Made by a program: the position numbers and the translations under genes
Part shown: one piece after another, positions 17,468-64,000 of the stretch
How positions within the stretch are numbered: the stretch's first letter is position 1
Layout of the letters: each line of letters begins with the position of its first letter
Notes under the pieces: model-generated
What the model was told of the DNA's origin: nothing
The model's database searches: none
The model's input: the letters and a program-made list of their open reading frames with translations, nothing else
NCBI RefSeq assembly: GCF_024502345.1
Contig: NZ_JALDNN010000001.1
Direction: 5' to 3' (one strand)
Source: Escherichia coli
GTDB taxonomy: Bacteria > Pseudomonadota > Gammaproteobacteria > Enterobacterales > Enterobacteriaceae
Length of the DNA stretch: 64,000 nucleotides

Positions 17468-17490
17468 GGTGATGCTGCCAACTTACTGAT
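17468..17490. repeat. IS1 left terminal inverted repeat
   Basis: 23-bp imperfect inverted repeat of 18213..18235. Confidence 0.9.
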
Positions 17491-17522
17491 TTAGTGTATG
17501 ATGGTGTTTTTGAGGTGCTCCA

Positions 17523-17798
17523 GTGGCTTCTGTTTCTATCAGCTGTCCCTCCTGTTCAGCTACTGACGGGGTGGTGCGTAACGGCAAAAGCACCGCCGGA
17601 CATCAGCGCTATCTCTGCTCTCACTGCCGTAAAACATGGCAACTGCAGTTCACTTACACCGCTTCTCAACCCGGTACGCACCAGAAAATCATTGATATGG
17701 CCATGAATGGCGTTGGATGCCGGGCAACCGCCCGCATTATGGGCGTTGGCCTCAACACGATTTTCCGCCATTTAAAAAACTCAGGCCGCAGTCGGTAA
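17523..17798 (+). CDS. insA: IS1 InsA
   Basis: ORF track 91 aa [24 protein letters not shown]..., matches InsA. Confidence 0.97.
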
Positions 17799-18220
17799 CC
17801 TCGCGCATACAGCCGGGCAGTGACGTCATCGTCTGCGCGGAAATGGACGAACAGTGGGGATACGTCGGGGCTAAATCGCGCCAGCGCTGGCTGTTTTACG
17901 CGTATGACAGGCTCCGGAAGACGGTTGTTGCGCACGTATTCGGTGAACGCACTATGGCGACGCTGGGGCGTCTTATGAGCCTGCTGTCACCCTTTGACGT
18001 GGTGATATGGATGACGGATGGCTGGCCGCTGTATGAATCCCGCCTGAAGGGAAAGCTGCACGTAATCAGCAAGCGATATACGCAGCGAATTGAGCGGCAT
18101 AACCTGAATCTGAGGCAGCACCTGGCACGGCTGGGACGGAAGTCGCTGTCGTTCTCAAAATCGGTGGAGCTGCATGACAAAGTCATCGGGCATTATCTGA
18201 ACATAAAACACTATCAATAA
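17717..18220 (+). CDS. insB: IS1 InsB (made as InsAB' transposase after a -1 frameshift)
   Basis: ORF track 167 aa [21 protein letters not shown]..., in the -1 frame relative to insA. Confidence 0.95.
17774..17780 (+). promoter_or_regulatory. IS1 programmed -1 ribosomal frameshift site (A6C)
   Basis: AAAAAAC heptamer in the insA/insB overlap. Confidence 0.8.
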
Positions 18221-18235
18221 GTTGGAGTCATTACC
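18213..18235. repeat. IS1 right terminal inverted repeat
   Basis: 23-bp imperfect inverted repeat; contains the insB stop codon. Confidence 0.9.
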
Positions 18236-23791: not shown

Positions 23792-23866
23792 ATTTATTAG
23801 ATCAGGCGTGACCTGACCCATCTTTGGCACAGAGCCAAACCTGAACTGACGGACCGCTCTGTGCCA

Positions 23867-24172
23867 TTACCTGACGTTGTATTCTTTTATGTTAACACCC
23901 TTGATACTGTATATACCTGTCCGCTTAATTCGCTTGCCCTTTTTATTCGTAATAGTTGCTGTAAGTGTACTGCAGCGAATGGAATGACGTTCATCAATCA
24001 CCAGCCGAATTGCTTCTGAAGCATCTTCCACCTCTAGAAGGTCGTGAGTCTTATTTAAGCCGAATGGAACAAGGTGGAAGGCAGTTTTTCCTGATGATTT
24101 TCTGGTTATTTTTACTGGATACAACACATCACCACTTTTATGGATTAATTCAAGCTGTTCAATGTAAATCAT
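23867..24172 (-). CDS. hypothetical small basic protein (101 aa from the ATG at 24172), no family recognised
   Basis: ATG preceded by AAGGAAAG Shine-Dalgarno, 16 nt after the stop of the upstream YhcG-like ORF; AT-rich; the track's 113-aa version uses a TTG start. Confidence 0.4.
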   Translation of the reverse strand: MIYIEQLELIHKSGDVLYPVKITRKSSGKTAFHLVPFGLNKTHDLLEVEDASEAIRLVIDERHSIRCSTLTATITNKKGKRIKRTGIYSIKGVNIKEYNVR

Positions 24173-24188
24173 GGCAACTTTCCTTCGT

Positions 24189-24668
24189 TTATTTGCATGA
24201 ATATACAAACCGAAAATAGGAGATGCAATACAAAAGCTGTGGAAATATCAAACAGCCTCTCAATTTGGCAGACAGCGTCTGCCAAATCTTTGCCGATGGG
24301 AATTCTGCAGATGGTGTCTGCGGAATTCCCAATGGTGTTAATTCGCCAGACACTGTCTGGCGAATTTCAACATGTTGAAAAAAGAGGTAAAAAAGCCTCA
24401 TTTGGCGTAAGTTTTTTGCAGAGAACCCACGCTTATACCTTAGACTTAAATCCTTTGATAGTCGCTTGATTAGCTGCGCACCATACGCAGCCCTTGCCTC
24501 GCCACCTTGTTCAAATTCGACAATTCGTCGGCCAATTTCCCAGTATGTCGCGGTCATCAGCGCGTTAACGCTACGTACCGTTTCCGTCCGGACGCTATCG
24601 ACCAGGTGAATAATATCGTCGTGGATTTGCTGGTAGCCTGTTGAGGTTCTCTCTGAGAGCGATTCCAT
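24189..24668 (-). CDS. yhcG: YhcG/DUF1016-family N-terminal domain ORF (159 aa); either a truncated yhcG remnant or a short stand-alone variant
   Basis: First ~96 aa (ATYWEIGRRIVEFEQGGEARAAYGAQLIKRLSKDLSLRYKRGFSAKNLRQMRLFYLFF) look like the DUF1016 N-terminal domain; then three 13-14-codon repeats and a hydrophobic tail; too short for the 375-aa K-12 YhcG. Confidence 0.5.
   Translation of the reverse strand: MESLSERTSTGYQQIHDDIIHLVDSVRTETVRSVNALMTATYWEIGRRIVEFEQGGEARAAYGAQLIKRLSKDLSLRYKRGFSAKNLRQMRLFYLFFQHVEIRQTVSGELTPLGIPQTPSAEFPSAKIWQTLSAKLRGCLIFPQLLYCISYFRFVYSCK
24263..24366. repeat. array of three palindromic or quasi-palindromic units with centres 39 bp apart
   Basis: atttggcagacagcgtctgccaaat / gggaattctgcag..ctgcggaattccc / aattcgccagacactgtctggcgaatt, all built on GCCAGAC/GTCTGGC-type arms. 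Confidence 0.7.
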
Positions 24669-24851
24669 TATCTGTCCCTTTATATGGCGCTGCGTTGAAT
24701 AATGGAATCAGCTATACGCCGGGCATCTACCGGTAACAATCCAGATGAGCGTATTACATTGGTTTTCTTCAGATTATGCGAGGCGCTTTCCAGAAAGAAA
24801 GGAGAATTTCAGCGCCGACTCTTTTCTGAGGAGGCGGCGCTGGGACAGAGC

Positions 24852-29200: not shown

Positions 29201-30743
29201 TAGTCACCTGGGCAAACTGCTGGCGGAAGTAGTCGTAAATAATGCGCGGCTGACTGGAGAGCACGGCGAATGGGGTATCATCGCCCATCGAACCGACCGC
29301 TTCCTGACCGTTTTCGCCCAGTACGCGAATTACGGAGTCCAGCTCTTCCGCGCTGTAGTTAAACTGTTTCTGGTAGCTGGCAAGCGTGTCGTCGTCCAGT
29401 TCGCGGCTACCCACTTCTTCATCGGGCAGATCTTCAAACGGTACCAGTCGGCGGACGTTTTTCTCCATCCACTCTTTATAAGGGTGGCGGCTTTTCAGAT
29501 CGTCATCGGTTTCTGCCGAGTGCAGAATACGTCCACTGCGAGTGTCGATCACCATCAGTTCGCCTGGCCCGACGCGGCCTTTTTCGACCACTTCGTCAGG
29601 CTGGTAATCCCAGATACCGACTTCAGAGGCGCAGGTGATGAGCTTATCTTTGGTGATGACGTAGCGCGCCGGACGCAGACCGTTACGGTCGAGGTTACAG
29701 GCAGCAAAACGACCGTCAGACATCACGATGCCCGCCGGGCCATCCCACGGCTCCATATGCATGGAGTTAAAGTCAAAGAAGGCACGCAGTTCCGGGTCCA
29801 TATCCGGGTTGTTCTGCCAGGCGGGTGGTACTAATAGACGCATGGCGCGGATGATATCCATCCCGCCTGCCAGCAGCAGTTCCAGCATGTTATCCATCGA
29901 ACTGGAGTCAGAGCCGGTTTCGTTGACGAACGGTGCGGCGTCGTGCAGGTCAGGGATAAGCGGTGTCTGGAATTTATAAGTACGCGCACGCGCCCATTGG
30001 CGGTTACCGGTGATGGTGTTGATTTCACCATTATGCGCCAGGTAGCGGAACGGTTGCGCCAGCGGCCAGCGCGGTACGGTGTTAGTGGAGAAGCGCTGGT
30101 GGAACAGGCAAATGGCCGATTCCAGACGCAGGTCCGCAAGATCCAGATAAAAGCGCGGCAGATCCGCCGGCATACACAGACCTTTATAGATGTTCACCAG
30201 ATTCGACAGGCTACAGACGTAGAAGTCTTTGTCGGCTTCGAGACGCTTTTCAATGCGACGGCGGGTGATAAACAGACGGCGCTCCATATCGCGTGGACGC
30301 CAGCCTGCCGGGGCGTTCACAAAAATTTGCTCAATGCGTGGCAGAGAGGAGAGGGCGATTTCACCCAGCACGCCTTCGTTAGTGGGGACATCACGCCAGC
30401 CCACAATCGACAAGGTTTCGCGTTGCAGCTCTTCTTCAACGATGCGGCGTGCGGCAGCAGCGAGTTCAGGATCTTTATTCAGGAAGAGCATCCCGACAGC
30501 GTAGTTTTTTGCTAAACGCCAGCCGCGCTCCTGCGCAACGATGCGAAAAAAGCGATCCGGTTTTTGTAATAGCAAGCCGCAACCGTCACCAGTTTTACCA
30601 TCGGCGAGAATCGCGCCACGGTGCTGCATACGGGCCAGTGCGTGTATTGCAGTACGCACTACCTTGTGGCTAGGTTCGCCTTCTATGTGGGCGATCAGGC
30701 CGAAACCACAGTTATCCCTCTCAAGGGATTTATCGTACAACAT
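26283..30743 (-). CDS. gltB: glutamate synthase large subunit
   Basis: Track ORF 1522 aa; I place the start at [15 protein letters not shown] (1486 aa), which has a GGAGG Shine-Dalgarno 8 nt upstream. Confidence 0.95.
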
Positions 30744-31417
30744 ATCGTGAACCTCCCCCAGGCTCTGCGGGAACCCCACTACCGAACCGCTGCGCACGGG
30801 CACAGAAAGAGCGTGGCGACGGGGGTTGCGTGTCATACGCGCGCCTCGCATTCGCCCCCTTGTTGTCCTTTTCGCATCGGTTAATACGGTGAAGAGGGGA
30901 TCTCAATTACTGCATAAATATGATGAGCAGGCTGCTCATCCAGAAAGCTTCCAGCGGATCTCCAACTTATCGGGAAAGCTGATACAGGTCAAATGGCAAG
31001 CTTATTGGTACAGAAATGTGCTTTAGCGCAAAATTCTTTATTAAATGGCTGAAATTAAAATAGATTTTATCTTTAAGGCTAAAAGGGAAGTCGTTAGAGA
31101 AACAGTCAATTCCTGACTGTCATAAAGGCGTGTTAACCCTTATCCTGCCTTGAACTGACGAGAAAACCAGCATTTTATACTGCCTTAATTGGTAATGACG
31201 TTTCATGCTACTGTTTTTGCCTAAAATCCATAAGGAGATAAAAAAATCTGACACAAGATAAGCAAAAGTGATTTATGTGATTATGCATGAAATTTCGGTA
31301 ATTTTGATTGATTATGCAGTTGATAAAAGCAGGCCGGGACGATTGATCCAGGTCATCGCCGAATTGAGCTAAAAATGGCAGGCTTTGGCCTCTTTTCAAG
31401 GCGCGGTCTATCAGATT

Positions 31418-32347
31418 ATGCAGTTACAGAAATTAGTCAATATGTTTGGTGGTGATCTCACCCGTCGTTATGGGCAAAAGGTGCATAAGCTGACGCTGCA
31501 CGGCGGTTTTAGCTGCCCTAACCGTGACGGTACCATCGGGCGTGGTGGCTGCACATTCTGTAATGTGGCCTCGTTTGCCGATGAAGCGCAGCAGCATCGT
31601 TCCATTGCCGAGCAACTGGCGCACCAGGCGAATTTAGTTAACCGCGCTAAACGCTATCTGGCCTACTTTCAGGCGTATACCAGCACCTTTGCGGAAGTTC
31701 AGGTGCTGCGTTCTATGTATCAGCAGGCGGTGAGCCAGGCCAATATTGTCGGTTTGTGTGTTGGTACCCGCCCGGACTGCGTGCCGGATGCGGTGCTGGA
31801 TCTGCTTTGCGAATATAAGGACCAGGGTTACGAAGTGTGGCTGGAGCTGGGGCTACAAACCGCCCACGACAAAACACTGCATCGCATCAACCGCGGCCAT
31901 GATTTTGCCTGTTATCAGCGTACAACCCAGCTGGCACGTCAGCGCGGGCTGAAGGTGTGTTCCCACTTAATTGTCGGCCTGCCTGGCGAAGGGCAGGCTG
32001 AATGTTTGCAAACGCTGGAGCGAGTGGTTGAAACCGGCGTGGACGGCATAAAGCTGCATCCGCTGCATATTGTGAAAGGCAGCATTATGGCGAAAGCCTG
32101 GGAAGCGGGGCGTTTGAACGGTATTGAACTGGAGGATTACACGCTCACTGCCGGAGAAATGATTCGCCATACGCCACCGGAAGTGATCTACCACCGCATT
32201 TCCGCCAGCGCCCGTCGTCCGACGCTGCTTGCTCCTCTGTGGTGCGAAAATCGATGGACGGGAATGGTCGAGCTGGATCGCTATCTGAATGAACATGGCG
32301 TACAGGGATCGGCGCTGGGACGTCCGTGGCTACCTCCTACGGAGTAG
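31418..32347 (+). CDS. yhcC: radical SAM family protein YhcC
   Basis: 309 aa from MQLQKLVNMFGGDLTRRYGQKVHKLTLHGGFSCPNRDG...; divergent from gltB. Confidence 0.88.
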   Translation: MQLQKLVNMFGGDLTRRYGQKVHKLTLHGGFSCPNRDGTIGRGGCTFCNVASFADEAQQHRSIAEQLAHQANLVNRAKRYLAYFQAYTSTFAEVQVLRSMYQQAVSQANIVGLCVGTRPDCVPDAVLDLLCEYKDQGYEVWLELGLQTAHDKTLHRINRGHDFACYQRTTQLARQRGLKVCSHLIVGLPGEGQAECLQTLERVVETGVDGIKLHPLHIVKGSIMAKAWEAGRLNGIELEDYTLTAGEMIRHTPPEVIYHRISASARRPTLLAPLWCENRWTGMVELDRYLNEHGVQGSALGRPWLPPTE

Positions 32348-32442
32348 GTCGTTGAGGGGAATTCCGCATTTCTCACACAATTTATAACGTAACTGTCAGA
32401 ATTGGGTATTATTGGGGCAGGTTGTCGTGAAGGAATTCCCTA

Positions 32443-34779
32443 ATGAAGCAAATTCGTCTGCTGGCGCAGTATTATGTTGACCTGATGATGAAGTTAGGTC
32501 TGGTGCGCTTCTCAATGTTGCTGGCGCTGGCCCTCGTCGTTCTTGCCATTGTGGTACAAATGGCGGTAACCATGGTGCTGCATGGTCAGGTCGAAAGCAT
32601 TGATGTTATTCGTTCTATCTTCTTTGGTTTGCTGATTACGCCGTGGGCGGTCTACTTTCTATCGGTGGTCGTCGAGCAACTGGAGGAGTCACGACAACGT
32701 CTGTCACGGCTGGTGCAAAAACTGGAGGAGATGCGCGAGCGCGATTTGAGCCTCAACGTTCAGTTAAAAGATAATATTGCCCAGCTAAATCAGGAAATTG
32801 CCGTTCGTGAAAAAGCGGAAGCAGAACTGCAGGAAACCTTCGGCCAACTGAAAATTGAAATCAAAGAGCGCGAAGAGACACAAATTCAGCTCGAGCAGCA
32901 ATCCTCATTCTTACGTTCCTTCCTTGATGCTTCACCCGACCTGGTTTTTTATCGTAACGAAGATAAAGAGTTTTCCGGCTGTAACCGCGCGATGGAGCTG
33001 CTGACCGGAAAAAGCGAAAAACAACTGGTTCATCTGAAACCTGCTGATGTTTACTCACCGGAAGCCGCTGCGAAAGTCATTGAAACCGATGAAAAAGTGT
33101 TCCGTCATAATGTGTCACTGACCTATGAACAGTGGCTGGATTACCCGGACGGGCGCAAAGCCTGCTTTGAAATCCGTAAAGTGCCGTACTACGACCGCGT
33201 GGGTAAACGTCACGGTTTGATGGGCTTTGGTCGCGACATTACCGAGCGTAAGCGGTATCAGGATGCGCTTGAACGGGCCAGCCGCGACAAAACGACGTTT
33301 ATCTCCACCATCAGTCACGAATTGCGTACACCGCTGAACGGTATCGTCGGCCTGAGCCGCATTCTGCTGGATACCGAACTCACCGCCGAGCAGGAAAAAT
33401 ATCTCAAAACTATCCATGTTTCGGCCGTCACGCTGGGGAATATCTTTAACGATATTATCGACATGGATAAGATGGAACGGCGCAAGGTCCAGCTTGATAA
33501 TCAGCCGGTTGATTTCACCAGCTTCCTTGCCGATCTGGAAAATCTCTCCGCATTGCAGGCGCAACAAAAAGGATTGCGCTTTAACCTGGAGCCTACGCTG
33601 CCATTACCGCATCAGGTCATTACCGACGGGACGCGTTTACGGCAGATCCTGTGGAACCTCATCAGTAACGCCGTCAAATTCACCCAGCAAGGCCAGGTTA
33701 CCGTGCGCGTGCGCTACGATGAAGGCGATATGCTGCATTTTGAAGTGGAAGACTCTGGTATCGGCATTCCGCAGGATGAGCTGGATAAAATCTTCGCCAT
33801 GTATTACCAGGTGAAAGACAGTCATGGCGGTAAACCTGCCACCGGCACCGGTATTGGTCTGGCCGTTTCTCGTCGTCTGGCGAAAAATATGGGCGGCGAT
33901 ATTACGGTTACCAGCGAACAGGGCAAAGGTTCAACCTTTACGTTGACGATCCACGCACCGTCGGTGGCAGAAGAGGTCGATGATGCGTTTGATGAAGACG
34001 ATATGCCTTTACCGGCGCTGAATGTGCTACTGGTGGAAGACATTGAACTGAACGTGATTGTTGCGCGTTCTGTGCTGGAAAAATTAGGTAACAGCGTTGA
34101 TGTCGCCATGACCGGCAAGGCGGCGCTGGAGATGTTTAAACCGGGCGAATACGACCTGGTGTTGCTGGATATTCAGTTGCCAGATATGACCGGGCTGGAT
34201 ATCTCTCGTGAACTGACGAAGCGTTATCCGCGCGAGGATTTACCGCCGCTGGTGGCCTTAACCGCTAACGTGCTGAAAGACAAACAAGAGTACCTCAATG
34301 CTGGAATGGATGATGTGCTGAGTAAGCCGCTTTCTGTTCCGGCGCTAACCGCGATGATCAAGAAATTCTGGGATACCCAGGATGATGAGGAGAGTACGGT
34401 GACGACAGAAGAGAACAGTAAATCAGAAGCATTGCTCGATATTCCCATGCTGGAACAGTATCTCGAACTTGTAGGACCGAAGCTGATCACCGACGGGTTA
34501 GCGGTGTTTGAGAAGATGATGCCAGGCTATGTCAGCGTGCTGGAGTCGAATCTGACGGCGCAGGATAAAAAAGGCATTGTTGAGGAAGGACATAAAATTA
34601 AAGGTGCGGCGGGGTCAGTGGGGTTACGCCATCTGCAACAGCTGGGTCAGCAAATTCAGTCTCCTGACCTTCCTGCCTGGGAAGATAACGTCGGTGAATG
34701 GATTGAAGAGATGAAAGAAGAGTGGCGTCACGACGTAGAAGTGCTGAAAGCGTGGGTGGCAAAAGCCACTAAAAAATGA
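32443..34779 (+). CDS. arcB: aerobic respiration control sensor kinase ArcB
   Basis: ORF track 778 aa; two TM helices, PAS, HisKA/ATPase, receiver and HPt domains. Confidence 0.96.
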   Translation: MKQIRLLAQYYVDLMMKLGLVRFSMLLALALVVLAIVVQMAVTMVLHGQVESIDVIRSIFFGLLITPWAVYFLSVVVEQLEESRQRLSRLVQKLEEMRERDLSLNVQLKDNIAQLNQEIAVREKAEAELQETFGQLKIEIKEREETQIQLEQQSSFLRSFLDASPDLVFYRNEDKEFSGCNRAMELLTGKSEKQLVHLKPADVYSPEAAAKVIETDEKVFRHNVSLTYEQWLDYPDGRKACFEIRKVPYYDRVGKRHGLMGFGRDITERKRYQDALERASRDKTTFISTISHELRTPLNGIVGLSRILLDTELTAEQEKYLKTIHVSAVTLGNIFNDIIDMDKMERRKVQLDNQPVDFTSFLADLENLSALQAQQKGLRFNLEPTLPLPHQVITDGTRLRQILWNLISNAVKFTQQGQVTVRVRYDEGDMLHFEVEDSGIGIPQDELDKIFAMYYQVKDSHGGKPATGTGIGLAVSRRLAKNMGGDITVTSEQGKGSTFTLTIHAPSVAEEVDDAFDEDDMPLPALNVLLVEDIELNVIVARSVLEKLGNSVDVAMTGKAALEMFKPGEYDLVLLDIQLPDMTGLDISRELTKRYPREDLPPLVALTANVLKDKQEYLNAGMDDVLSKPLSVPALTAMIKKFWDTQDDEESTVTTEENSKSEALLDIPMLEQYLELVGPKLITDGLAVFEKMMPGYVSVLESNLTAQDKKGIVEEGHKIKGAAGSVGLRHLQQLGQQIQSPDLPAWEDNVGEWIEEMKEEWRHDVEVLKAWVAKATKK

Positions 34780-34891
34780 CCCCGGCTAGACCGGGGTGCG
34801 CGAATACTGCGCCAACACCAGGGAAATCTTGGCTGCGCCGTAAATTATTATGATGAGTTACAAGGGCACAGCACTGTTTTTCAGGCCGCAC
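34771..34891 (-). ncRNA. arcZ: ArcZ small regulatory RNA (SraH/RyhA)
   Basis: Minus strand reads GTGCGGCCTGAAAAACAGTGCTGTGCCC...GCGCAGTATTCGCGCACCCCGGTCTAGCCGGGGTCATTTTTT, matching ArcZ as I recall it; its terminator overlaps the arcB stop codon. Confidence 0.85.
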
Positions 34892-35008
34892 GCAGTTAAG
34901 ATAGCAAAACTTAAATGATTTGTTACATGAATCAGTTAAATGTGTGATGCGTACCATTTTTATTAAAAAAATTAATGTGTTTCAGTCAATTGCGAAAGGA
35001 TGATCACA

Positions 35009-35662
35009 ATGAAGAAAATTGGCGTAATTCTGAGCGGATGCGGCGTCTATGACGGTTCTGAAATTCATGAAGCGGTGTTGACGTTGTTAGCTATTTCACG
35101 CAGCGGTGCGCAGGCGGTCTGCTTTGCACCGGATAAGCAGCAGGTTGATGTTATCAACCATTTAACTGGCGAAGCGATGACGGAAACGCGCAACGTGCTG
35201 ATTGAAGCGGCACGAATAACGCGCGGTGAAATCCGTCCTCTGGCCCAGGCCGATGCCGCTGAACTGGATGCGTTGATTGTGCCGGGGGGGTTTGGCGCGG
35301 CGAAGAATTTAAGCAATTTTGCCACTCTTGGTAGCGAATGCACCGTTGACCGTGAATTAAAGGCGCTGGCACAAGCGATGCATCAGGCCGGAAAACCGCT
35401 TGGTTTTATGTGTATTGCCCCGGCGATGCTGCCGAAAATTTTCGATTTCCCGCTGCGTTTGACCATCGGTACTGATATCGATACCGCAGAAGTGCTGGAA
35501 GAGATGGGCGCGGAGCATGTGCCGTGTCCTGTCGATGATATCGTGGTTGATGAAGACAATAAGATTGTCACCACCCCAGCATATATGCTGGCGCAGAACA
35601 TTGCAGAAGCGGCGAGCGGCATTGATAAGCTGGTTTCCCGCGTGCTGGTTCTGGCTGAATGA
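35009..35662 (+). CDS. elbB: ElbB, DJ-1/PfpI family glyoxalase-like protein
   Basis: 217 aa from [21 protein letters not shown]... Confidence 0.9.
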
Positions 35663-36387
35663 GTAAAAGCCGCTTAACGGTGTTTAGTTTCGTTCGCCGT
35701 TTTCTTTTGCGGTTAATGGTTGTCCTCGCCGTTTTCTGGGGCGGGGGCATCGCGTTGTTTAGCGTTGCGCCTGTTCCCTTCTCAGCGGTAATGGTCGAGC
35801 GACAGGTCAGCGCCTGGCTGCATGGCAATTTTCGTTACGTGGCACATTCTGACTGGGTCAGTATGGATCAAATCTCGCCGTGGATGGGACTGGCGGTGAT
35901 TGCCGCAGAAGATCAGAAATTTCCTGAGCACTGGGGCTTTGATGTCGCTTCCATTGAGAAAGCCCTGGCGCACAATGAGCGCAATGAAAACCGTATTCGC
36001 GGTGCTTCAACGATTTCTCAACAGACAGCCAAAAATCTCTTTTTATGGGATGGGCGTAGCTGGGTTCGAAAAGGGCTGGAAGCCGGATTAACGCTGGGGA
36101 TAGAAACTGTCTGGAGCAAAAAGCGTATCCTGACGGTTTACCTGAATATCGCCGAATTTGGCGACGGTGTGTTTGGCGTCGAAGCTGCGGCACAACGTTA
36201 TTTCCACAAACCCGCGAGCAAACTTACCCGATCGGAAGCTGCCTTACTGGCAGCTGTATTACCTAATCCACTTCGTTTCAAAGTCTCCGCGCCATCGGGC
36301 TACGTGCGCAGCCGTCAGGCGTGGATTTTACGGCAGATGTATCAGTTAGGCGGTGAGCCGTTTATGCAACAACACCAGCTGGATTAA
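35659..36387 (+). CDS. mtgA: monofunctional peptidoglycan glycosyltransferase
   Basis: ORF track 242 aa; start overlaps the elbB stop. Confidence 0.93.
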
Positions 36388-63164: not shown

Positions 63165-63251
63165 GCCGAGGTGGTGGAATTGGTAGACACGCTACCTTGA
63201 GGTGGTAGTGCCCAATAGGGCTTACGGGTTCAAGTCCCGTCCTCGGTACCA
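63165..63251 (+). tRNA. leuU: tRNA-Leu, anticodon GAG
   Basis: 87 nt GCCGAGGTGGTGGAATTGGTAGACACGCTACCTTGAGGTGGTAG...GGTACCA with long variable arm and encoded CCA; 14 nt after secG. Confidence 0.95.
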
Positions 63252-63290: not shown

Positions 63291-63325
63291 TTTATAAGCC
63301 AGGTTAAGTATTCTTAATTTGATAA

Positions 63326-64000
63326 CTATTTACCTAGGCATAAATCTGTTTCATCTAGTTTGAAATCTGTAATTTCTAACTTTTGCATTATTACCGGAAG
63401 CACTTGGTGAATTATTCTCATGCCAGTAAGGATCTCGTTCATGTATATATCTGGATGAATGCGAGATTTATTGAAATCGAAACGTTCGGCTTCTGCTGCA
63501 ACGCTAAGTTGGTCAGCGGTGTTATAAACCATTTCCAGAAGTTCGGCTCTTAACGGAATTCCCGCCCTGAATGCCATCATCTTGAGTTGATTCAACCAAT
63601 TTTCGTAGTCTTTTTTAACTCTATAACGAAATTCTTTAAAGTTTGACGCAACAGGAGTATCAATTTCAATTTTGCATGCAGCAAGTGATATCAATGAACT
63701 CTGAATATTGATGGCTTCGCTTGAATAGACATCTAAATCGTCGTCCTGAATCAACTCATCAACATATGCTATGTAGAAACCATAAACATCATTCAGAGCA
63801 TGATAAATATCATTAATTACAGAACAATGAGCATTGCTCTCTAATATCTCCCAAAAAGCCTCTTCTTCATCAGCATTATCGTCGTCAATATTAAGTCCTT
63901 CAGGAAAGGAAAGAGGTGTAGGAAAACCTATTCGCTTTAATACATCAATTGTTTCTTCAACCAAAAAACCATCTTCGTCAGTAAGAAGTTGTGTTATATA
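63326..64000 (-). CDS. C-terminal part (at least 224 aa) of an acidic hypothetical protein; its start lies beyond the window edge
   Basis: Minus-strand frame is open from the window edge (..YITQLLTDEDGF..) to the stop at 63326; the track's start at 63964 is a TTG; AT-rich; convergent on leuU; not the yhbX I expect here. Confidence 0.5.
   Translation of the reverse strand, partial: YITQLLTDEDGFLVEETIDVLKRIGFPTPLSFPEGLNIDDDNADEEEAFWEILESNAHCSVINDIYHALNDVYGFYIAYVDELIQDDDLDVYSSEAINIQSSLISLAACKIEIDTPVASNFKEFRYRVKKDYENWLNQLKMMAFRAGIPLRAELLEMVYNTADQLSVAAEAERFDFNKSRIHPDIYMNEILTGMRIIHQVLPVIMQKLEITDFKLDETDLCLGK

Follow-up and report, generated by a model that had tools for sequence, protein, structure and literature searches.

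The gltB-yhcC intergenic region

The DNA analyzed here, hereafter the window, is a stretch of 64,000 nucleotides from Escherichia coli, whose annotation was transferred from the colinear strain LHM10-1. In this window the genes gltB and yhcC are divergently oriented and separated by a gene-free gap of 674 bp (30744..31417), delimited by the annotated start codon of gltB on the minus strand (ATG at 30743) and by that of yhcC on the plus strand (ATG at 31418). The strain lacks gltF and the neighboring yhc fimbrial genes, so that the operon is here gltBD and not gltBDF, the name used in an earlier note on this DNA. The counterpart gap of E. coli K-12 (3354051..3354724) has the same length and no annotated feature, and it differs from the window by 8 SNPs in 674 bp. 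Moreover, 5416 of the 5426 complete E. coli genomes contain a match of at least 95% identity to a 1-kb query spanning the gap.

The window contains 57 intergenic gaps with a median length of 95 bp, and the one between gltB and yhcC is the longest, the runners-up measuring 458, 434 and 394 bp. Two apparent rivals were discarded: the dcuD-nanR gap (~830 bp) is occupied by a 768-bp IS1 with insA and insB and is hence coding, and in the last 700 bp there is an ORF that continues past the window end. The earlier note was thus right in calling this interval the largest non-coding one and unusually long, and the length is not due to chance, as it falls between 656 and 688 bp in 76 of 76 Enterobacteriaceae loci. 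Its description of the interval as an AT-rich control region holds for a part of it only. Specifically, the 361 bp from 30960 to 31320 have a GC content of 34.6%, and the two tracts singled out as AT-rich reach 25% (31021..31080) and 27.5% (31240..31330). The whole gap, at 44.1% GC against 51.7% for the window, simply equals the mean of the local gaps of at least 100 bp (43.6 +/- 5.5%), and the ~217 bp proximal to gltB (30744..30959) are 57% GC. That is, the GC-rich leader of gltB, which is not promoter DNA, takes up about one third of the gap.

The gltB promoter and its regulator sites

All protein-site assignments in the window are carried over from work on K-12. In particular, Paul et al. 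2007 (PMC1784095) located a Crp site at -76..-55 (centre -65.5), an IHF footprint at -75..-113 that is needed for activation by Lrp, Lrp sites centred at -152, -215 and -246, and an ArgR footprint at -361..-318. Transferred to the window, and together with the core promoter, these sites are arranged as follows.

30964..30992, minus strand: sigma-70 core promoter of gltB, with -35 TTGACC (30992..30987), a 17-bp spacer and -10 TAAGTT (30969..30964), read from the sequence
31014..31036: Crp-cAMP site, which represses gltB (published footprint and mutagenesis; primer gltcrp1 maps here)
31035..31073: IHF footprint (-75..-113; published footprint)
31105..31213: three Lrp sites, with centres near 31112 (-152), 31175 (-215) and 31206 (-246) (published centres)
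31282..31299 and 31303..31320: two 18-bp ARG boxes, 3 bp apart, from which ArgR represses gltB

The numbering depends on the position of the transcription start. The primers gltP1 and gltP2 map to 31285..30953, which corresponds to the published fragment -325..+8 and sets gltB +1 at 30960; back-calculation from the Crp centre at -65.5 sets it at 30959. Grainger et al. number an FNR site as -399.5 relative to gltB, which implies a start at ~30950 and leaves a mismatch of ~10 nt with the numbering of Paul et al. (30959/30960). The nucleotide at 30960 is a G in the window and an A in K-12. The position of the core promoter agrees with the 21-bp Crp-to-(-35) spacing of Paul et al., and its -35 element is invariant among relatives. 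A consensus promoter scan of 30600..31600 on both strands gave no matches, and such a scan is insensitive, missing even the proven gltB promoter. An FNR-like motif (TTGACCTGTATCAG) that overlaps the gltB -35 was set aside, its second half not being conserved outside Escherichia.

Consensus scans recover most of the mapped sites independently. The Crp core TGTGC-N6-GCAAA lies at 31017..31032 (-72..-57), with three mismatches in the motif scan and a centre within 1 nt of the published one. The sequence CAGCATTTTATACTG (31168..31182) departs from the Lrp consensus at one position and is centred exactly at -215, and an Lrp-consensus-like site is found at about -215/-216 in 63 of 75 relatives. Both ARG boxes, with four and three mismatches to the consensus, respectively, fall inside the published ArgR footprint, which maps to 31278..31321. 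A third ARG-box-like 18-mer, in the leader at 30909..30926, has four mismatches and is not significant alone, such matches occurring 0.77 times per kb in the window. With regard to IHF, the consensus WATCAANNNNTTR at up to one mismatch has no match in 31035..31073 of the window, the published evidence being a footprint and not a consensus match; a match at the same threshold, centred at -79, is present in 38 of 75 relatives. Two of the eight SNPs relative to K-12 fall in the IHF footprint, and none in the Crp core, the Lrp-2 site, the ARG boxes or the FNR core described below. Because of the small number of SNPs, the consistent mapping of primers and sites and the independent consensus scans, the gap can be assigned to the region studied in K-12. 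In that strain, the RNA polymerase footprint at gltB needs Lrp and IHF together (Paul et al.), and an insertion of 5 bp lowers expression 3-7 fold, an effect that a 10-bp insertion does not have.

The expectation that the glutamate synthase operon is under complex control by nucleoid-type proteins is therefore experimentally documented (PMC1784095). The comparison with mapped gltB sites that had been proposed as a check gives a positive outcome for Lrp at -215, the paired ARG boxes and the Crp core, and for IHF a published footprint in which the consensus has no match at up to one mismatch. The two AT-rich tracts had both been described as typical of sites for Lrp, IHF or Fis. The first (31021..31080) does overlap the IHF footprint, together with the Crp site; the second (31240..31330) falls for the most part on the two ArgR boxes and on none of the sites for Lrp, IHF or Fis, and the Lrp sites near 31112, 31175 and 31206 are located between the two tracts.

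The yhcC promoter

At the opposite end of the gap, two features belong to yhcC.

31343..31356 (centre 31349.5): FNR site TTGATCCAGGTCAT, two mismatches to the consensus TTGAT-N4-ATCAA
31391..31417, plus strand: yhcC transcription start and 27-nt 5'UTR (start from PMC7967276 Table S1)

The sequence CGGCGATGACCTGGATCAATCGTC, given for the yhcC/gltB target in the FNR ChIP-chip study of Grainger 2007, corresponds to 31340..31363 of the window, and its core TTGATCCAGGTCAT is identical to the published site. In addition, Myers 2013 reported an FNR ChIP-seq peak and listed yhcC among the directly FNR-activated operons, with its start marked as not known. The yhcC start reported at K-12 3354077 (PMC7967276 Table S1) maps to 31391 of the window, which places the FNR centre at -41.5, as is canonical for promoters of class II. 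Upstream of this start, an extended -10 with a weak hexamer can be read from the sequence (TGgCAGGCT at 31376..31384). The FNR site is invariant in nearly all of 76 relatives, two of which differ by a CA substitution within the N4 spacer, and the first 12 codons of yhcC are almost invariant, synonymous sites included. The 75 bp next to yhcC thus correspond to a promoter of class II activated by FNR, binding and induction being transferred from K-12. A promoter of this class for yhcC had not been anticipated in the earlier note. YhcC is an anaerobic radical SAM enzyme of tRNA modification. A 2026 report describes that it stands in for the O2-dependent MnmC oxidase activity under anaerobiosis, and a class II FNR promoter fits with this anaerobic role. 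An interpretation of TGGCAGGCTTTGGCC, which lies upstream of yhcC, as a sigma-54 promoter was rejected, as its GG-GC spacing lacks one nucleotide and the scan had no match there.

Conservation of sequence and spacing among Enterobacteriaceae

A scan with YhcC retrieved 80 Enterobacteriaceae loci, 76 of which have gltB and yhcC in divergent orientation. Mean identity to the window and length were determined for six consecutive segments of the gap.

30744..30893: distal leader, 73% identity, 134-164 nt
30894..30960: leader +1..+67, 94% identity, 66-67 nt
30961..31036: core promoter and Crp site, 73% identity, always 76 bp
31037..31256: IHF and Lrp sites, 45% identity, 218-221 bp
31257..31342: ARG boxes, 69% identity, 86-87 bp
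31343..31417: FNR site to yhcC ATG, 85% identity, 73-76 bp

Nearly all the variation in gap length is accounted for by the distal leader, and in 75 of 75 loci the gltB -35 and the FNR site are 357-360 bp apart. The alignment cannot be relied upon within the 45%-identical segment, where only the anchor-to-anchor lengths are robust. From these lengths we infer that the linear and helical geometry of the array upstream of gltB is under strong selection, with the underlying sequence drifting. A geometry kept more strictly than the sequence is what would be expected of an architectural, phase-dependent complex, and the conserved spacing agrees with the different outcome of 5-bp and 10-bp insertions in K-12. 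The locked distance between the -35 and the FNR site, the 94%-identical start of the leader, the covarying hairpin that it contains and the placement of FNR at -41.5 appear to be new.

The gltB leader

The gltB-proximal part of the gap is transcribed as the leader of the gltB mRNA and includes a predicted hairpin, HP1.

30744..30960, minus strand: gltB 5'UTR, ~217 nt, 57% GC (start 30959/30960, back-calculated from Paul et al. 2007)
30894..30960, minus strand: near-invariant leader start (+1..+67), 94% mean identity over 66-67 nt in 76 loci
30922..30940, minus strand (+21..+39): leader hairpin HP1, GAUGAGC-AGCCU-GCUCAUC, -11.1 kcal/mol

The old start of a 1517-aa gltB product, the in-frame ATG at 30836, was rejected: Klebsiella, Kosakonia and Pluralibacter have a deletion that removes the codon, and the indels near it are not multiples of three. 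More generally, the in-frame extension of gltB up to 30851 keeps an intact frame in none of the 76 relatives and is not coding.

RNAalifold, run on 48 distinct gltB leaders, predicts HP1 at +21..+39 plus a central domain. The whole leader structure contains 12 covarying pairs, against 2.7 +/- 1.1 in shuffles (none of 500 reaches 12) and 1-7 in slid controls. Specifically, HP1 shows changes on both sides in four of its eight pairs; in the lower seven pairs every one-sided change creates a G-U pair on the gltB-sense strand. A further 13 one-sided G-U changes occur at the apical pair (columns 30-34), which is unpaired in 6 of the 48 leaders; these are the only unpaired cells of the hairpin. As one-sided changes restricted to G-U on the gltB-sense strand favor a constraint acting on the RNA of that strand, the segment +1..+67 with HP1 most likely carries an additional constraint at the RNA level, as judged from the comparative alignment. 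In terms of folding energy the whole leader is unexceptional with respect to shuffles (z = 0.23), and the sole match of an Rfam cmscan (30000..36000, E <= 1) was ArcZ (34784..34891), with nothing in the gap. A long-range pairing of the 5' end with an SD-proximal sequence, also proposed by RNAalifold, was rejected: all its pairs are invariant, its energy of -16.9 kcal/mol is equaled by 18% of shuffles and better pairing partners are numerous inside the gltB mRNA.

A possibility is that the segment +1..+67 with HP1 is an undescribed post-transcriptional element of gltB, namely a docking site for Hfq, RNase E or a small RNA such as RyhB or OmrA/B, or a weak attenuator. The 94% identity and the compensatory and G-U-only changes of HP1 on the sense strand point in this direction, as does the invariant AU-rich stretch that directly follows the hairpin, the two together being called terminator-like, albeit weak, by a simple scan. 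With regard to RyhB, a Ribo-seq study lists gltB as an unvalidated candidate for translational repression, and the RyhB seed pairs with the leader at +5..+36 with -26.4 kcal/mol; this pairing is nevertheless marginal, since 10% of shuffled leaders equal the real one. A duplex prediction with full-length RyhB was discarded as meaningless, 76% of shuffles being as good. Overexpression of OmrA/B is published to lower the GltB and GltD proteins, but the authors of that work suggest a possibly indirect effect via ppc, and the seeds of OmrA and OmrB pair with the leader no better than with shuffles. Furthermore, the invariance of the leader start could in part reflect a DNA-level site downstream of the transcription start, and a literature search found no gltB leader element, uORF, leader peptide, CsrA link or validated sRNA link. 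On balance, a role of this kind is conceivable, but we consider it somewhat less probable than its absence.

The candidate non-coding RNA G0-10702

The earlier note had added the caveat that the gap might encode a small RNA, and a published candidate sits exactly there.

31299..31404, minus strand (toward gltB): candidate ncRNA G0-10702, 106 nt (K-12 3354064..3354169, PMC7967276)

This RNA overlaps the yhcC 5'UTR by ~14 nt, crosses the FNR site and reaches the ARG boxes. G0-10702 could be an independent functional small RNA, operating in trans or interfering with the yhcC promoter and the gltB upstream region. According to PMC7967276, its start (K-12 3354064) was confirmed in two 5'-specific RNA-seq data sets, and the RNA is conserved in enterics and abundant while yhcC is barely expressed. 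In addition, it lies largely over the 85%-conserved segment 31343..31417, and its promoter would fall within the first 12 codons of yhcC, near-invariant even at synonymous positions. Against such a function, the same source records that EcoCyc removed G0-10702 in 2019, the evidence being insufficient; no Rfam family matches it (cmscan of 30000..36000, E <= 1), its fold is no better than that of shuffles (z = 0.75), and no intrinsic terminator was seen near 31299 either by reading the sequence or from the terminator scan. Moreover, the FNR site and the yhcC promoter account for the conservation of its 5' half; in the 3' half (31299..31340) conservation is only partial and centers on the ARG box, with 31321..31340 variable. 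The promoter scan was empty on both strands, a result of little weight given the insensitivity of the scan. Taken together, these data make an independent function of G0-10702 unlikely, without depriving it of all plausibility.

Small open reading frames

Could the gap hide a small protein gene, that is, one of the ORFs of the track or an attenuating leader peptide for gltB? Several ORFs of 34-66 codons are present, among which that at 31208..31399 (minus strand, 63 aa, TTG start) had already been judged spurious. This judgment extends to all five gap ORFs of this size, which are intact in only 0-2 of 76 relatives. A shorter reading frame lies in the leader.

30907..30939, minus strand: 10-codon uORF MSSLLIIFMQ*, overlapping HP1

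A GGAAG motif precedes it by 8 nt, and the frame remains unbroken in 67 of 76 loci. On the other hand, the peptide varies where HP1 covaries, with non-conservative changes in residues 2-5, and Phytobacter and Kosakonia have lost the stop codon. The 3' half of the uORF is invariant even at synonymous sites, which indicates a constraint on nucleotides and not on the peptide, and the uORF is probably incidental. Attenuation, for its part, is opposed by the failure to find an alternative antiterminator pairing beside the weak terminator-like hairpin, and the literature search gave no support for a leader peptide. A small protein gene in this gap is consequently very improbable.

Organization of the divergent control region

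The idea that the extra length is a functionless spacer or the decayed remnant of a mobile element, suggested by a central segment of 220 bp only 45% identical among relatives, can practically be dismissed, given the fixed length of that segment (218-221 bp) and of the gap (656-688 bp) in 76 loci, the experimentally mapped sites that cover it and the presence of the region in 5416 of 5426 E. coli genomes. The reading that we prefer, with a probability of roughly 0.9, is that the gap is the known divergent control region of gltB(D) and yhcC, and that it is long as almost every part of it is occupied.

In this organization, gltB would have a 217-nt leader preceded by a weak sigma-70 promoter unable to fire unaided. 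The following ~360 bp of upstream DNA would accommodate Crp (-65.5), IHF, three Lrp sites and two ArgR boxes. As shown by others in K-12, a bend introduced by IHF brings far-upstream Lrp to RNA polymerase and gltB is activated 30-40 fold, Crp-cAMP and ArgR-arginine each trimming this activation ~2-fold. At the far end, yhcC, with a leader of 27 nt, would be transcribed from a class II promoter activated by FNR.

The interval as such is already known; it is real but ordinary, and its earlier description as a complex control region adds nothing new, the region being among the best-characterized E. coli cases of activation at a distance. For specialists, the comparative results have a modest interest. 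In particular, the spacing lock (within 3 bp over ~360 bp) extends to the whole family what rested on a single 5-bp/10-bp insertion experiment. The conserved leader element is a modest lead that can be tested, and it could explain reported translational effects on GltB without a change in mRNA. Beyond what is published, a more speculative proposal would be that the leader +1..+67 serves as a switch for gltB and that the 360-bp array operates as a single spacing-locked nucleoprotein machine; taken jointly, we regard these two ideas as tentative and rather doubtful. If confirmed, the leader could represent an entry site for Hfq, RNase E or a small RNA that couples GOGAT, an Fe-S enzyme, to iron via RyhB, and the array would couple the gltB promoter to the FNR-controlled yhcC/G0-10702 pair, and hence nitrogen assimilation to the oxygen status of the cell.

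Comparison with known systems

The closest known system is the gltBDF region of E. coli K-12 itself, whose Lrp-IHF activation complex, with repression by Crp and ArgR, is the subject of Wiese 1997 and Paul 2001/2007. The window carries the same locus, with the same promoter, Crp core, Lrp-2 site at -215 and paired ARG boxes. It differs in the lack of gltF and the yhc fimbrial genes, in the G instead of A at 30960 and in the two SNPs of the IHF footprint.

Long-range IHF-assisted activation is also known from ilvPG, where, as at gltB, a bend brings a distant activator to a weak promoter in a phase-dependent manner. At gltB, unlike ilvPG, the activator is Lrp, bound more than 150 bp upstream of a sigma-70 promoter, and the 360-bp array, which includes the promoter of the neighboring gene, has been fixed in length through evolution.

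Class II FNR promoters, with the site at -41.5, include those of dmsA, pykA and nrdD. The yhcC promoter resembles them in having TTGAT-N4-GTCAT at -41.5 combined with a weak -10, and ChIP occupancy and FNR-dependent activation are published for yhcC in K-12. In contrast, its second half-site is degenerate (GTCAT versus ATCAA), it faces an opposing start 13 nt downstream, that of G0-10702, and its upstream DNA is shared with the ArgR boxes of gltB.

Finally, the predicted element of the gltB leader is similar to the regulatory hairpins and sRNA docking sites of enterobacterial 5'UTRs in consisting of a covarying stem-loop near the 5' end of the mRNA and, after it, an invariant single-stranded stretch rich in A and U. 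It differs from them in its location more than 170 nt from the start codon and in belonging to no Rfam family.

ArgR enrichment and leader structure near the gltB start

In the ChIP-qPCR analysis of Cho et al. 2015, the ArgR amplicon for the gltB promoter was found to be ~60-fold enriched. When mapped onto the window, this amplicon corresponds to 30866..31003, that is, to positions -43..+95, and, despite its enrichment, the footprinted ARG boxes lie 320-400 bp away from it. An ARG-box-like 18-mer with 4 mismatches is present within the amplicon at 30909..30926, although matches of this kind occur at 0.77 per kb in the window.

The gltB leader differs among enterobacterial genera. In particular, an extra invariant hairpin, GCAAGU-CCUCAA-ACUUGU (columns 76-95 of A1, the leader alignment), is found in most genera, being carried by locus L010 and by most loci outside Escherichia and Salmonella, and it is removed by a 14-nt deletion in Escherichia, Salmonella and one MAG.

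Conserved 5′ codons of yhcC and a repeat in the intergenic region

On the opposite side of the gap, the nucleotides of yhcC codons 1-12 (31418..31455) are almost invariant among the 76 relatives with divergent gltB and yhcC, synonymous sites included. The putative promoter (TTGACT, 31439..31434) of the published candidate ncRNA G0-10702 would fall within these codons.

An exact 12-nt direct repeat, GATTATGCAGTT, is also present, its copies spaced 105 bp apart, the one at 31309..31320 lying inside ARG box 2 and the other, at 31414..31425, running across the yhcC start codon; by our own estimate, ~0.014 such 12-nt pairs would be expected by chance in 674 bp. On the opposite strand, TTATGCAGT is found again at 30904..30912 (minus strand) within the invariant gltB leader, and all three copies are kept across the relatives.

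Other features of the window

RNA genes of the window include:

34784..34891, minus strand, ArcZ sRNA (Rfam RF00081, 120.8 bits, E = 3.8e-28)
63165..63251, tRNA-Leu(GAG)

ArcZ is positioned just past arcB, in agreement with the K-12 annotation. Similarity to K-12 and to the colinear strain LHM10-1 ends 42 bp past tRNA-Leu(GAG), and the part beyond (63294..64000) is AT-rich, with a minus-strand ORF of at least 213 aa that continues past the window end and that gave no match in a Pfam search. This segment is possibly an island inserted beside leuU.

The interval between dcuD and nanR harbors a complete IS1 of 768 bp with insA/insB (17468..18235), replacing ~318 bp of K-12 and LHM10-1 sequence; the replaced stretch comprises the start of dcuD (its initial ~13 codons) and the greater part of the spacer between this gene and nanR. 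At 23792..24850, K-12 gltF and the yhcA-yhcF fimbrial cluster are missing, and a truncated yhcG remnant directly follows gltD. Accordingly, the operon is here gltBD, not gltBDF.
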